A DNA stretch of 64,000 nt, from IMG/VR virus record IMGVR_UViG_3300030693_000013. One strand, given 5' to 3'. The translations under genes were made by a program, and so were the position numbers. The notes beneath the pieces were generated by a model. It did not search any database and was not told the DNA's origin. It saw only the letters and a list, made by a program, of their open reading frames with translations. Of the stretch, positions 53,299 through 60,985 are shown piece after piece (within the stretch, counting starts at the first letter, position 1; the number at the start of each line of letters is the position of its first letter). Source of the DNA: a virus.

Positions 53299-55620
53299 AT
53301 GTCTGATCTCGGCCAAAATGGCGTCATCCAGTTCACGCCGCCCGCACAGTTGGAGCAGCAGCTTTCTGATCAGGCATCCGCCAAGGCAGCGGCTGCGCAG
53401 ACTGCCGCGACTGCCGCTCAGCCGCAGTACCCACAGCTCGCCGGCTACGTCAAGTCGCAGTTCGAGATTTTCCGGAACCACCGCAACACCGTAGCAGGCT
53501 GGAGCAACCGCATGCTCGCCGCGCTGCGCGCATTCAATGGTCAATACGACCCAACCAAGCTGCAGGAGATCACCAAATGGGGTGGCTCAACTGTCTACGC
53601 GCGAGTGATTGCGCAGAAGTGCCGAGCAGCTTCCTCATTGCTGCGCGACATTTACCTGGGCCAAGATATCCCGTGGTCACTGGCGCCGCCGAAGCAGCCC
53701 CAGGTGCCGCCGGGCATCGCTCAGGCGATCGACCAGCTGATCCAGCAGGAAGCGCAGCGCGTGCAGCAGACCACAGGCCAGCCGCCGCAGCAGAGCGATC
53801 TCGCGGAACGCAAGCGCAATCTGATCGAGCAGGCTGAAGACGCCGCCAAACGCAAGGCTGTCTCGCAAGCGCGCGACGCCGGCGACAAAATTCAAGACAT
53901 GCTGACGGAGGGGGGCTACTACCACGCGCTCGCGGAGTTCCTTGTCGACCTGCCGATCTTCCCGTTCGCGGTGATCAAAGGCCCGGTTGTCAAGGTAATT
54001 CCGACTGTCGTGTGGCCACCGAACGGCGGGCCGCCGCAAGTCAAGCAGCAGCCCAAGCTAACTTGGAACCGCGTGTCGCCATTTGACATCTGGTTCACCC
54101 CAGGCGTCGCGGATATCGAAAATGCGAACGTTATCGAAAAGCTGCGGGTTACGCGAAGCGAACTGAATGATCTCCTTGACCTTCCCGGTTACAATCAGAG
54201 CGAGATTTTGGCCGTGCTCGACGAGTTCGGCCGTGGGGGGCTCTACGACAACTGGGACACCACTGACGCGGAGCGCAGCGTACTGGAGAGCCGGGAAAAC
54301 CCAGCTTGGAATAGGTCGGGAATGATCTCGATGATGGAGTTCAACGGCAACATCCAGGGCCGCATGCTCCAAGACTACGGCATGGTCGTACCAGATCAGC
54401 TGCGCGATTATCACGTCCAAATCTGGATTATTGGTTCCCACGTCATCAAGTGCCATCTGAGCCCATCTCCGCGTCAGCGTCATCCGTATTTCATCACTTC
54501 GTTCGAGAAAGTTCCAGGGACGCCCGTCGGCAACGGGCTGACGGACCTTCTTGCCGACCTGCAAGAAGCTAGTAACGCTACTCTGCGATCGTTGATTAAC
54601 AACATCTCGATCGCGTCGGGACCTCAAGTTGTCGTGAACGACGACATGCTCGCGCCAGAAGAGAATGGGGAGGACCTTTACCCATGGAAGCGCTGGCACG
54701 TCCGCTCGGACCCGATGACGAGCAGCTCGAAACAGCCGATCAGCTTCTTCATGCCGAGCAGCAATGCCCAGCAGCTGATGCAGGTCTACGAACAGATTGT
54801 GAGCATTGCGGACGACGTATCGGCGATCCCGAAATATGTCGGTGGGCAGGGTGGTGGTGGTGCGGGCAGGACCGCCTCGGGCCTAGCGATGCTGATGGGC
54901 AACGCTTCGAAAATTCTTCAAACCGTCAGTGCAAACATCGATCGCGATGTGATCGAAGGCACGATGTTGCAGCTGTTCGATTTGCTTATGCTGACCGATA
55001 CGAGCGGCCTGCTGACTGGCGAAGAACGTGTAACGGTGCAGGGTGTGAACGTCGCGATCCAGCGCGAGACGCTGCGCCAGCGCCAGATCGAGTTCTTGAC
55101 GGCGACGAACAACCCGACCGACCAGAAGATCATGGGGATCAAGGGCCGTGCCGTTGTGCTCCGCTCCGTGTCCACAACGATTGGTATGCCGGGTGAAGAG
55201 ATCGTCCCGTCGCAAGACGAGATCGACAAAATGGCCCAGGACGAGAAGCAGCAGGCCCAGAACGGCGGCGGCGAGATCGACGCGGCAGTTCAGAAGGCGG
55301 TTGTCAAGGGCGTCGAAGCGGGCGTCCAGCGCATCACCACCGAGCTGACCGCCGGCCGGCTGGCGATGACCGAAGGCATGAGCGAAGGACCGCCGGCGCA
55401 CGTCGGCACCCCGGGCACCGGGCCGACCCAGAACGCCACGAACAACCCGGGCATGGACCTGGGCCAGCAGCCGCACCCCAACGACGGTACACAGCAGCGC
55501 GCGGCGCAGGCACAGGGCAATCAGCCCAGCCAGCTGTCGCAATCGATGGGTCCGCAGACGCATTTGACCGGAAGTCAACCCGGTAAAGGCGCGATGCCCG
55601 TGACCGGGGGCGTAGGCTAA
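53299..55620 (+). CDS. Portal protein
   Basis: 773 aa after TerL; HPYF...GTPVGNGL, SGPQV and RTASGLAMLM motifs. Confidence 0.85.
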   Translation: MSDLGQNGVIQFTPPAQLEQQLSDQASAKAAAAQTAATAAQPQYPQLAGYVKSQFEIFRNHRNTVAGWSNRMLAALRAFNGQYDPTKLQEITKWGGSTVYARVIAQKCRAASSLLRDIYLGQDIPWSLAPPKQPQVPPGIAQAIDQLIQQEAQRVQQTTGQPPQQSDLAERKRNLIEQAEDAAKRKAVSQARDAGDKIQDMLTEGGYYHALAEFLVDLPIFPFAVIKGPVVKVIPTVVWPPNGGPPQVKQQPKLTWNRVSPFDIWFTPGVADIENANVIEKLRVTRSELNDLLDLPGYNQSEILAVLDEFGRGGLYDNWDTTDAERSVLESRENPAWNRSGMISMMEFNGNIQGRMLQDYGMVVPDQLRDYHVQIWIIGSHVIKCHLSPSPRQRHPYFITSFEKVPGTPVGNGLTDLLADLQEASNATLRSLINNISIASGPQVVVNDDMLAPEENGEDLYPWKRWHVRSDPMTSSSKQPISFFMPSSNAQQLMQVYEQIVSIADDVSAIPKYVGGQGGGGAGRTASGLAMLMGNASKILQTVSANIDRDVIEGTMLQLFDLLMLTDTSGLLTGEERVTVQGVNVAIQRETLRQRQIEFLTATNNPTDQKIMGIKGRAVVLRSVSTTIGMPGEEIVPSQDEIDKMAQDEKQQAQNGGGEIDAAVQKAVVKGVEAGVQRITTELTAGRLAMTEGMSEGPPAHVGTPGTGPTQNATNNPGMDLGQQPHPNDGTQQRAAQAQGNQPSQLSQSMGPQTHLTGSQPGKGAMPVTGGVG

Positions 55621-55874
55621 TGGCCGGGACCCTCAAAACAGTGATCGTGCTCGCGGGTCCGACCGGACCTACAGGAACCATGAAGGGTGTTAACATCTGG
55701 ACTGGCATGAGCGGACTTTCTGGCGGACATGCGACGTGGCTTCAATACACCGGAGGCAAAGGGCCGAGCGGTATACTCGAGCGCGTCTATCCGCTGGCGG
55801 CAGACGGCGCCGGTTTTACCGGCGCCCACAAGACTGTGTTCATTTCGGGCTACGTCGGCCCGACCGGCTCTTAA
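55620..55874 (+). CDS. Small GPT-containing virion protein
   Basis: GPTGPTG and GPTG motifs; coupled to the portal gene. Confidence 0.6.
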   Translation: MAGTLKTVIVLAGPTGPTGTMKGVNIWTGMSGLSGGHATWLQYTGGKGPSGILERVYPLAADGAGFTGAHKTVFISGYVGPTGS

Positions 55875-55886
55875 GGACATTTTAAC
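55871..55886. promoter_or_regulatory. CtrA-type box TTAA-N7-TTAAC
   Basis: TTAAGGACATTTTAAC upstream of the collagen/glycosylation genes. Confidence 0.6.
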
Positions 55887-55958
55887 GGACCTAAGACACT
55901 CTCATGAGCATGTTCACCGATTTTGGTGAGGCCAGTATAAAACTGACAGGGGACTATC

Positions 55959-59733: not shown

Positions 59734-60379
59734 GATCGTCACGGCCTATGTACCGATCCCGAACCACCCGCGCACCGCCGCCGAATATGGCGAGCTGGGA
59801 GAAAAACTCAGCGGCGTCCCGGTGCGGAAGAAGGCTTTCTACCAGCACCCCGCGGACCTGTGGATGATGAAATACATCAACGGGCTTCCGTTCGTGCCGG
59901 CGTCGTCGAAGCACGACAACCCGAGCAAAAACACGCTCGCCTACCACGCTGTCAACCACCAGAAGACGTCATGGCTGGTCCAGGCCTCGAACGAGGACCC
60001 GGAGGCCGACGTGCTCGTGTGGGTCGACTACGGCATCTTCCGACTGCCGGGGGTCAACAATCAGGCCATCTATGAGTTCATGGAGAAGGTCGATGACAAA
60101 GCCATCTACGCGCCCGGCTGCTGGGACCGACCTCAGGTGGTTGAGAGCGCTTATCCTTGTTGGCGGTTCTGCGGATCGATGCTCGCCGTCCCGAAAAAAC
60201 AGGTCGATGCCTTCGACTACGCTTGCCGCGTTGCTGCGCGCAAACACATTTCTTCGACGAAGAACGTCGAGTGGGAAGTCAACACCTGGGCGCGCGTCGA
60301 AGCACAGGGCAAGCTGAAATTCAAGTGGTATAAGGCTGATCACGACGTCAGCATGTTCAACAATCTGGAGTTAGTGTAA
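59723..60379 (+). CDS. HtrL/WlaTC-like putative glycosyltransferase
   Basis: KIVTAY...KTSWL...WVDYGI...WRFCGSML pattern. Confidence 0.65.
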   Translation: MRTKIVTAYVPIPNHPRTAAEYGELGEKLSGVPVRKKAFYQHPADLWMMKYINGLPFVPASSKHDNPSKNTLAYHAVNHQKTSWLVQASNEDPEADVLVWVDYGIFRLPGVNNQAIYEFMEKVDDKAIYAPGCWDRPQVVESAYPCWRFCGSMLAVPKKQVDAFDYACRVAARKHISSTKNVEWEVNTWARVEAQGKLKFKWYKADHDVSMFNNLELV

Positions 60380-60403
60380 TGATCCTGTATCTGGAGAACC
60401 ATC

Positions 60404-60985
60404 ATGAGTGTTGAGTATTTAGAGAGCCTGTTTACACGCTTTGGCACTGATAAAGGGACGTGGGGCTACACGGCCTATTATGCCACGGCGATGGAAGCAC
60501 GTCGCTTTGACGTCAAGGCAGTCCTCGAGGTAGGCATCTGCGGCTATCGCGACATTCCGAACAACGTAGTCGGCGCCAGCCTCTTCGTGTGGCGGGAGTA
60601 TTTCCCCAACGCTGAGATTTACGGCATCGACAACGACAGCCGGTTCATCTTCAATGACCAGCCGCGCATCCACACCGCGCTGGCCGACGCCTACGACGTG
60701 GCGTCTTTGTCAATGGCCTTGATCGACTTCAATGTCGGCCGGCCGTTCGACATGATCGTCGACGATGCCGTCCACGACCCCGAGCCGCAGCTCCATCTGG
60801 CGAACATGCTGACCCCGGCGCTGGCCAAGGGTGGCCGCTATTTCATTGAGGAAGCCTGCCCCTACAAGCTGAACGAGCCCTACGAGAAATGGCTCAGCCA
60901 CCGGATCAACCTCGCTGGCGAGATCACGGGTATTCACGCTTGCGTGACCCCGAAGCCCGAGGAGCTGATGATCCTTATTAAGTAG
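60404..60985 (+). CDS. Class I SAM-dependent (sugar O-)methyltransferase
   Basis: GTDK...Y, VLEVGI, GASL..WREYFPNAEIYGID, IVDDAVH, GGRYFIEE. Confidence 0.85.
   Translation: MSVEYLESLFTRFGTDKGTWGYTAYYATAMEARRFDVKAVLEVGICGYRDIPNNVVGASLFVWREYFPNAEIYGIDNDSRFIFNDQPRIHTALADAYDVASLSMALIDFNVGRPFDMIVDDAVHDPEPQLHLANMLTPALAKGGRYFIEEACPYKLNEPYEKWLSHRINLAGEITGIHACVTPKPEELMILIK

Follow-up and report, generated by a model that had tools for sequence, protein, structure and literature searches.

The cassette and its collagen-like genes

The subject of this analysis is a group of genes at 55620-60985 of IMG/VR virus record IMGVR_UViG_3300030693_000013, located between the portal and scaffold genes of an uncultured soil-type phage. 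The window – the whole stretch of 64,000 nucleotides (nt) that was analysed – has a GC content of 60% and represents most of the phage genome (~66 kb); a glycosyltransferase (GT) protein identical to the one encoded in the window is also present on contigs reaching 66 kb. Comparison of the region with 50,697 phage records by megablast gave no matches; the phage has no close cultured relative. Our preferred interpretation, to which we attach a probability of roughly two in three and which draws on sequence comparisons, is that the cassette encodes collagen-like fibres together with enzymes that O-glycosylate such fibres. The genes of the cassette are listed below (coordinates are those of the window; aa, amino acids).

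55620-55874, plus strand: orf84, 84 aa, small protein of the virion module, GPTG motifs short
55959-56528, plus strand: col1, 189 aa, predicted collagen-like fibre protein
56541-57350, plus strand: col2, 269 aa, predicted collagen-like fibre protein, paralog of col1
57383-57724, plus strand: endonuclease VII gene (PF02945, 9.5e-13; phrog_2914, 4.7e-19)
57721-59733, plus strand: GT, 670 aa
57721-58725, plus strand: N-terminal part of GT (residues 1-335), SgtA-like GT2 catalytic domain and TPR
58726-59733, plus strand: C-terminal part of GT (residues 336-670), predicted five-bladed beta-propeller of GH130/GT108/GT91 type
59723-60379, plus strand: HtrL-like protein, 218 aa, predicted GT-A fold
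60404-60985, plus strand: methyltransferase (MT), 193 aa, MycE/TylE-type catalytic domain alone

The position and co-orientation of these genes, all on the plus strand from portal to scaffold, agree with an earlier note on this DNA. The order of genes from portal to MT given in that note also holds, but the endonuclease VII gene had been overlooked.

The col1 protein matches Pfam Collagen at 6e-12 and collagen-type tail-fibre PHROGs at 7e-18; col2 falls below the cut-off for Pfam Collagen (0.0023) and matches the tail-fibre PHROGs at 1e-15. Threonine occupies Y in 25 of the 37 triplets of col1 and in 20 of the 34 of col2 (59-68% of Y positions). Judged by their sequences, both are genuine collagen-like proteins. 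In col1 the G-X-Thr repeats are flanked by conserved ends of ~35 aa (N-terminal) and ~30 aa (C-terminal), and the two proteins have in common an N-terminal motif, ...L..V...IN..(P)G..GPTG, and a C-terminal motif, PPxxDPxxxGxVWNxxG...S.G. As paralogs they probably share an attachment or trimerisation module; a Pfam search found no domain other than Collagen in either.

In BclA of Bacillus anthracis and B. cereus, oligosaccharides terminating in a methylated sugar are O-linked to Thr residues of the GPT region. BclA-type collagens resemble col1 and col2 in possessing a collagen-like region with abundant Thr at Y, but the resemblance is one of functional analogy only: no BclA-type terminal domains (N-terminal for exosporium targeting, C-terminal of C1q/TNF-like type) were detected in col1 or col2, and the two are not to be classed as BclA members. 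The term 'exosporium-like', formerly applied to these fibres, overstates what is an analogy.

A further gene, orf84, had been grouped with col1 and col2 as a third GPT collagen directly after the portal. While the other two stand, orf84 was rejected: its triplets occur in runs of three only, it does not match Collagen, and Thr is not dominant at Y. Searches of Pfam and PHROG returned no match of any kind for the protein. It is, however, 43-64% identical to the N-terminus of proteins of 328-344 aa encoded directly after the portal in relatives, one of which (L001 7792-8826) contains an IPT/TIG domain (6e-15), and 83-aa forms of the gene also occur in other relatives. By sequence, then, orf84 appears as the short form of a gene of variable length; it may encode a surface decoration protein that is truncated in the window.

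Three additional collagen-like genes are situated at the other end of the window:

182-961, plus strand: distal collagen-like fibre gene 1, in tail-fibre position, upstream of a GH108-type endolysin
1855-3975, plus strand: distal collagen-like fibre gene 2, Pfam Collagen
3975-5327, plus strand: distal collagen-like fibre gene 3, Pfam Collagen

Their description as G-X-T collagens is borne out by scores over the Pfam Collagen cut-off (6.4e-9, 2.1e-18 and 2.6e-16, in the order listed) and by the frequency of Thr at Y (22/35, 53/78 and 32/63). Candidate substrates for glycosylation, as predicted from sequence, are col1 and col2, which are likely, and the three distal fibre proteins, which are probable.

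The SgtA-like glycosyltransferase and its companion enzymes

The GT comprises three parts, two of which – a GT2 catalytic domain and a TPR region – had been recognised at the outset; the third, a beta-propeller of ~300 aa, had been missed. PF00535 matches GT at 1e-4, just short of the cut-off. A profile of the N-terminal part (18 homologs) matches SunS (1e-16), ThuS (7e-11) and GmaR (1e-10), plus TPR proteins: the three enzymes are the nearest solved relatives, and each is a peptide or protein glycosyltransferase. TPR_12, TPR_7 and TPR_14 match at residues ~188-240, and strong profile matches to TPR structures extend over residues 183-297.

A closer functional comparison is provided by SgtA, a 358-aa GT-A plus TPR enzyme of Clostridioides difficile whose gene lies immediately upstream of bclA3, and which in vitro adds beta-O-linked N-acetylglucosamine (beta-O-GlcNAc) to Thr of the GPT collagen repeats of BclA3 (PMC7157674). 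With the help of a published cloning primer, we located C. difficile sgtA and bclA3 on a contig of metagenomic origin (L182). BLASTP aligns the window GT with SgtA (L182 2004-3080) at 7e-13, with 23% identity over 309 columns; hhalign gives a probability of 99.0% (E 9e-18) for residues 4-297 of GT against 3-291 of SgtA. Two motifs, of nucleotide-binding and DXD kind, that are invariant among the 18 homologs, D36-T-G-S-T-D41 and D98-A-D100, align with DTGSTD and DAD of SgtA. Together these alignments indicate that GT is homologous to SgtA across both its catalytic and its TPR parts.

The neighborhood is also comparable: col1 and col2 are 0.4-1.8 kb upstream of GT, which adjoins G-X-Thr collagen genes, just as sgtA is directly beside a G-X-Thr collagen-like gene. 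We propose that residues 1-335 of GT constitute an initiating protein O-glycosyltransferase that would act on Thr of G-X-T repeats. A predicted complex of this part with col1 scored 0.00, with the partner poorly folded, and weighs neither way. There are differences between the two systems: the window enzyme is encoded by a phage and carries an additional fused propeller, genes for an HtrL-like GT and a sugar O-methyltransferase come after its own, and its presumed substrates are short virion fibres as opposed to a membrane-anchored spore protein. SgtA-BclA3 is nonetheless the closest known system, and the proposed function of the cassette has good comparative support.

The C-terminal part of GT (residues 325-670) is predicted by AlphaFold2 (AF2) to form a five-bladed beta-propeller, with a mean confidence (predicted local distance difference test, pLDDT) of 92.5. 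Foldseek places the Uhgb_MS mannoside synthase first among PDB structures (9erg, 4e-11), followed by GH130 phosphorylases and the Leishmania GDP-Man-dependent MPT (6q4x), with 1vkd, 5b0p and 4udk also listed, at template-modelling (TM) scores of 0.5-0.6. Matches in the Swiss-Prot section of the AlphaFold database include fungal Bmt beta-mannosyltransferases and GH130 entries, and tblastn with GT finds phage genes labelled 'beta-mannosyltransferase'. At the level of sequence, PF04041 does not match the window GT – the only match of this type is weak (7e-4) and in a Bradyrhizobium homolog – and a propeller profile built from 30 homologs finds no significant relative among PDB sequences. Since no match exists at sequence level, the propeller would represent a new and distinct family of the GH130/GT108 fold. 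Its invariant residues (E470-D471-x-R473, K529-N530-W531, H584-E585 and R595/Y597/H599/R600) would fit an active site that is maintained by selection. From the modelled fold we propose that the propeller is a glycan-extending module, either a transferase of beta-mannosyl type or a phosphorylase.

The HtrL-like protein overlaps the end of the GT gene by 11 nt (stop/start overlap). Its AF2 model (pLDDT 95.8) has a GT-A fold, with Escherichia coli HtrL (P25666) as the top Swiss-Prot match in the AlphaFold database (E 5e-9, TM 0.68 by query); the PDB structures that it matches include GT6 ABO transferases and the A64R capsid glycosyltransferase of chlorovirus PBCV-1 (TM 0.53-0.58). PF09612 (HtrL_YibB) matches seven of 25 homologs, at best 4.9e-5, but not the window protein even at E 1. 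The label 'HtrL-like' given earlier is accordingly apt for the fold, while a Pfam match for the window protein is wanting. Other searches were blank: tblastn against phages gave no matches, a profile of the protein found nothing significant among PDB sequences, leaving fold searches alone as informative, and NCBIfam held nothing useful for this protein or for MT. We propose, on the basis of the model, that it is a second glycan-extending enzyme.

In a protein-language-model search the HtrL-like protein fell close to viral clusters in which PF09612 is partly present and, more distantly (score 0.87, a lead only), near clusters of PF25342 (GT_PLOD). The latter is the glycosyltransferase domain of animal collagen lysyl hydroxylase.

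The MT profile matches two PDB structures of macrolide sugar 2'-O-methyltransferases, MycE (3ssm, 1.3e-31) and TylE (8ia9, 5.2e-29); as a single sequence MT matches MycE/TylE at 4-5e-10. The homology is in the class I SAM-dependent catalytic domain. Residues Y48, D121, H124 and E150 align with MycE Tyr208, Asp275, His278 and Asp304 (the MycE chain numbering in the alignment being offset by a 20-residue tag), which have been named as active site and Mg2+ ligands of the MycE family (PMC9275233). Position 150 is Glu in the window and Asp in most relatives. The alignment of MT covers residues 189-324 of the MycE chain only: the ~180-residue N-terminal auxiliary or tetramerisation domain is missing, and where MycE methylates a macrolide sugar, MT would act on a glycan attached to protein. 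MT is thus predicted to be a metal-dependent sugar O-methyltransferase of MycE/TylE type with its active-site residues kept, which upholds the suggestion, made before this analysis, of a methyltransferase suited to the capping of glycans with methyl groups.

A pair consisting of a GT and an MT could in principle act on hydroxymethyl-pyrimidines, and DNA-hypermodifying phage glycosyltransferases are well documented; the enzymes might then glycosylate and methylate bases of the phage's own DNA as a defence against restriction. That they do so is very improbable. The cassette, to which the screen was confined, holds no hydroxymethylase or TET-type dioxygenase; GT resembles SgtA, SunS and GmaR and has protein-binding TPR; MT is of the type that methylates sugar hydroxyls; and the genes are found among head genes, not replication genes.

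Homologs in bacterial genomes and in related phages

Homologs of GT were sought in prokaryotes, each species being represented by a single genome; more than 500 relatives emerged, and 80 loci were taken for comparison. Homologs of terminase, portal and capsid are absent from all 80. In 40 of the 80 there is a G-X-Y run 15 or more triplets long, mostly 0.2-2.5 kb from GT, and in these runs Thr is nearly always dominant at Y (for example 390/413, 216/220, 444/468, 313/317, 415/421, 79/79 and 49/50). The collagen-bearing loci span Alphaproteobacteria, Chlamydiota, Actinomycetota, Myxococcota, Bacillota, Verrucomicrobiota and others; bacteria represented among the loci include Bradyrhizobium, Mesorhizobium, Nocardioides, Streptomyces, Polyangiaceae, Bacillus marasmi, Desulfosporosinus, Acinetobacter and Comamonadaceae. 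The frequency of 40/80 lies far above chance according to an informal estimate from whole-genome checks, which puts the rough background at ~1% per 20-kb window. Among the collagen matches listed for a 9.3-Mb Bradyrhizobium genome, all but one (a 193-aa frame) are in the giant frame beside GT; those listed for the 8-Mb genome of Mesorhizobium sophorae are all in two giant frames, one beside GT and the other ~5 kb beyond.

The chromosome of Bradyrhizobium sp. Pha-3 (L099 57-15664) provides an example. A 1659-aa DUF4347-collagen protein with 413 G-X-Y triplets, 390 of which have Thr at Y, adjoins an ABC exporter and is divergent from the gene for an 1895-aa enzyme in which GT2-TPR-propeller is joined to GT2, Anp1/GT62, GDSL and GT25 domains. 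From its sequence the locus is a candidate for a cellular system of giant glycosylated collagen fibres. In several Bradyrhizobium and Mesorhizobium genes a MycE-like domain is fused with GT in one open reading frame (ORF).

Within the phage, the cassette is embedded in genes of the late operon:

51339-52910, plus strand: terminase, late operon
53194-55620, plus strand: portal, SU10-type (PF23899 SU10_portal, phrog_332)
61033-61998, plus strand: four small ORFs, late operon
62020-63153, plus strand: scaffold, late operon
63210 onward, plus strand: major capsid, late operon

The GT start codon, a GTG preceded by a GGAGGAG Shine-Dalgarno sequence, overlaps the stop of the endonuclease VII gene by 4 nt. 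A scan of the plus strand from 53000 to 63300 for promoters and terminators gave nothing over shuffled expectation, and it is therefore from gene packing that a single operon is read. CtrA-type TTAA-N7-TTAA boxes flank the cassette, at ~55872-55886 (just 5' of col1) and ~60978-60992 (just 3' of MT).

As an alternative, the cassette could be a moron whose products remodel envelope glycans of the host (lipopolysaccharide (LPS) core, O-antigen or exopolysaccharide), or glycosylate its giant collagen-like surface proteins, with superinfection exclusion or release as the benefit. In rhizobial hosts, genes for homologous GTs do adjoin those of giant secreted collagen-like proteins; PHROG assigns GT to the category 'moron, auxiliary metabolic gene'; mannosides are the substrates of GH130-type domains; and E. 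coli HtrL has an LPS-related context. The cassette genes, however, are co-oriented and overlapping within a late structural operon, with no evident promoter or terminator of their own; the enzymes have neither membrane-spanning segments nor signal peptides; the nearest relatives of GT are protein glycosyltransferases, not lipid-linked ones; and the phage encodes G-X-T substrates of its own next door. We give action of either kind on the host only a small probability.

More than 100 phage homologs of the complete GT fusion, 42-57% identical to it, are present on metagenome contigs of 60-69 kb; about 250 GT-fusion homologs were found in IMG/VR, of which 80 loci were taken for comparison. The cassette keeps its gene arrangement across more than 70 independent phage contigs from metagenomes, a repetition that places it beyond chance. 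The components nevertheless differ in constancy. An HtrL-like gene is directly downstream of GT at 54 of 70 related loci, whereas a MycE-like MT is downstream in 19 of the 41 relatives with enough flank; col1/col2-like genes are present between portal and GT at 46 of the 72 loci that have a portal upstream of GT, the col1 homologs being 46-70% identical and in the same position. The 26 loci without portal-side collagens all belong to a more distant sub-clade (GT 37-42% identical). Given these counts, GT plus HtrL-like protein form a conserved core, with MT and the portal-side collagens as optional parts: the three enzymes are not the fixed unit that had been envisaged.

The collagens themselves are more constant than their position. 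A Pfam Collagen search of related records gave matches over the cut-off in 25 of 25, including 20 of 20 that are at least 90% complete; seven of the positive records (L038, L060, L065, L067, L070, L075 and L084) lack portal-side collagens, or have none within the stretch. Related phages with the enzymes and without collagens, which the earlier note had named as the pattern that would speak against its proposal, were looked for in this search and did not appear.

One of the records just named, L084, is classed by IMG/VR as a provirus; at ~4500-15600 it contains a single frame of 6174 aa that consists almost entirely of collagen repeats (99 Pfam Collagen matches).

The head-module location of the cassette, from portal to scaffold and capsid, suggests a different set of targets: the enzymes could act on other virion proteins – major capsid, portal, decoration or tail – with the collagens as unrelated fibre genes that happen to share the slot. 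It is consistent with such a role that in 26 of 72 relatives the enzymes are retained at this location although col1/col2 are missing from it, that the fold of the HtrL-like protein resembles that of PBCV-1 A64R, which glycosylates capsid protein, and that GTs of mycobacteriophage structural operons glycosylate virions. But the bacterial partner of this GT family, across phyla, is a G-X-Thr collagen gene and not a capsid gene; the substrate of the homologous SgtA is a GPT collagen; and the 25 related records all still have collagen genes elsewhere. We regard these other targets as unlikely. Neither they, nor the host envelope, nor phage DNA account as well for the cross-phylum pairing with G-X-Thr genes as does glycosylation of the fibres.

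Further enzymes of sugar metabolism are found at the same site in relatives: an NDP-sugar 4,6-dehydratase/epimerase, a TylC3-type sugar C-methyltransferase (Methyltransf_13/14), DUF4422, Methyltransf_24 and a sulfotransferase (L041 8745-17096; L039 12612-16929; L028 13220-15748; L030 13908-14918; L003 13578-14204; L005 558-1367). The portal-scaffold site behaves as a variable glycan island. The window has no genes for nucleotide-sugar synthesis, which relatives do have, and 'self-contained', as the system had been called, is more than this window supports.

The endonuclease VII gene, between col2 and GT in the window, is absent from L001 and is found elsewhere in the cassette in L003 (12705-13016), L024, L025 and L040; in the last three the homolog is just 5' of GT. 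Because its position varies, or the gene is absent, among relatives, it is interpreted as a mobile insertion of homing type; it is outside the glycosylation pathway.

The nearest cultured phage is Rhizobium phage RHph_TM27A, whose portal is 57% identical. Its portal is followed by three small ORFs and then by scaffold and capsid: the cassette is absent. Its genome likewise contains no convincing collagen-like gene, the sole G-X-Y run being a short repeat of Gly-Ser/Val that contains neither Pro nor Thr and is antisense to an annotated gene.

Several of these observations count against fibre glycosylation as the function of the cassette. The association of GT with collagen is one of neighborhood and homology, and the likeness of the propeller to GH130/GT108 is confined to the predicted fold. 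Collagen fibres with G-X-Thr repeats are common in phages without such enzymes, so that nothing can be diagnosed from Thr at Y alone. The relatives that keep GT and HtrL-like protein without col1/col2 by the portal (26/72) imply that the enzymes are not tied to those particular genes. Half of the bacterial loci (40/80) have no collagen gene in the flank: many of these are short contigs, yet complete loci of the Bacillus cereus group are among them too. Lastly, the sole control that lacks both cassette and collagen, the RHph_TM27A group, is a single lineage.

A proposed glycosylation pathway and its implications

Taking glycosylation of the fibres as the function, the cassette would be an accessory insertion at a fixed site in the late head-gene operon, with an enzyme content that varies in the manner of a glycan-diversity island. 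O-glycosylation of the fibres would take place in the cytoplasm of the infected cell, before or during assembly. In a first step the SgtA-like GT2-TPR module would transfer a sugar from a host nucleotide sugar – by analogy a hexose or N-acetylhexosamine (HexNAc) – to the Thr that occupies Y in G-X-T repeats. Further residues would then be added by the fused propeller and by the HtrL-like GT-A enzyme, whose translation is coupled to that of GT, and finally the MycE/TylE-like enzyme would methylate a sugar hydroxyl, leaving a methyl-capped oligosaccharide. Homologies, folds, synteny and a GT-collagen association are observed; the order of the steps and the choice of sugars we infer. The proposal that this phage encodes O-glycosylation and methyl-capping of Thr-rich collagens, put forward in the earlier note, thus gains backing from the homology with SgtA, the type of MT and the cross-phylum association of GT with G-X-Thr genes, although the trio and the self-containment of the system had been overstated.

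Parallels exist in other viruses. In chlorovirus PBCV-1 (A064R/A64R) and in the fibrils of giant viruses, virion surface proteins are modified by virus-encoded, soluble GT-A glycosyltransferases and a methyltransferase, and virion glycosylation in chloroviruses and giant viruses includes methylation of the terminal sugar. These, however, are viruses of eukaryotes in which capsid N-glycans or fibrils are made, the initiating enzyme is not SgtA-like, and the likeness is at fold level only. Mycobacteriophages, like the phage studied here, have GTs inside the virion gene cluster; theirs act on structural proteins of the phage itself (capsid and tail-tube), as those of the cassette would. Both the GT families and the substrates differ, and, going by the papers listed in our searches, no collagen-like acceptor, propeller or sugar methyltransferase has been described for mycobacteriophages. 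To our knowledge, glycosylation of phage particle proteins is barely explored beyond mycobacteriophages, and enzymatic glycosylation of bacterial collagen-like proteins is known essentially from one characterised enzyme, SgtA. A search of the accessible literature found no paper on phage-encoded collagen glycosylation or on SgtA in phage.

A broader scenario may be offered, though tentatively and as something rather less than probable. In a large and widespread clade of ~65-kb soil phages with hosts of Hyphomicrobiales type, the hypervariable glycan island between portal and scaffold might produce strain-specific O-glycans – methylated here, elsewhere sulfated, C-methylated or built on deoxy-sugars – on Thr of the phages' own collagen-like fibres. 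The machinery would be shared, and possibly exchanged, with that by which the hosts glycosylate their giant secreted collagen-like surface proteins, such that the fibre coat imitates or competes with a structure of the host surface; the fused GH130-like propeller would then be the first member of its fold in bacteria or phages to build protein glycans. What the phage gains from the coat is a matter for speculation: stability, adsorption, shielding or mimicry could each be imagined.

If the fibres are indeed the substrates, then SgtA-type enzymes would define a very widespread system of collagen glycosylation, present in many bacterial phyla and in hundreds of uncultured phages, with the GH130-like propeller, the HtrL-like GT and the MycE-like methylase as modular extension enzymes. 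A function would be assigned to proteins of the HtrL family and to a new family of propellers, and the dominance of Thr at Y in the collagens of prokaryotes and phages would be explained. Compact soluble enzymes would also become available for the production of glycosylated recombinant collagens. For the phages themselves, glycan coats would constitute a variable layer of surface biology, with consequences for adsorption, stability and recognition by host and environment.

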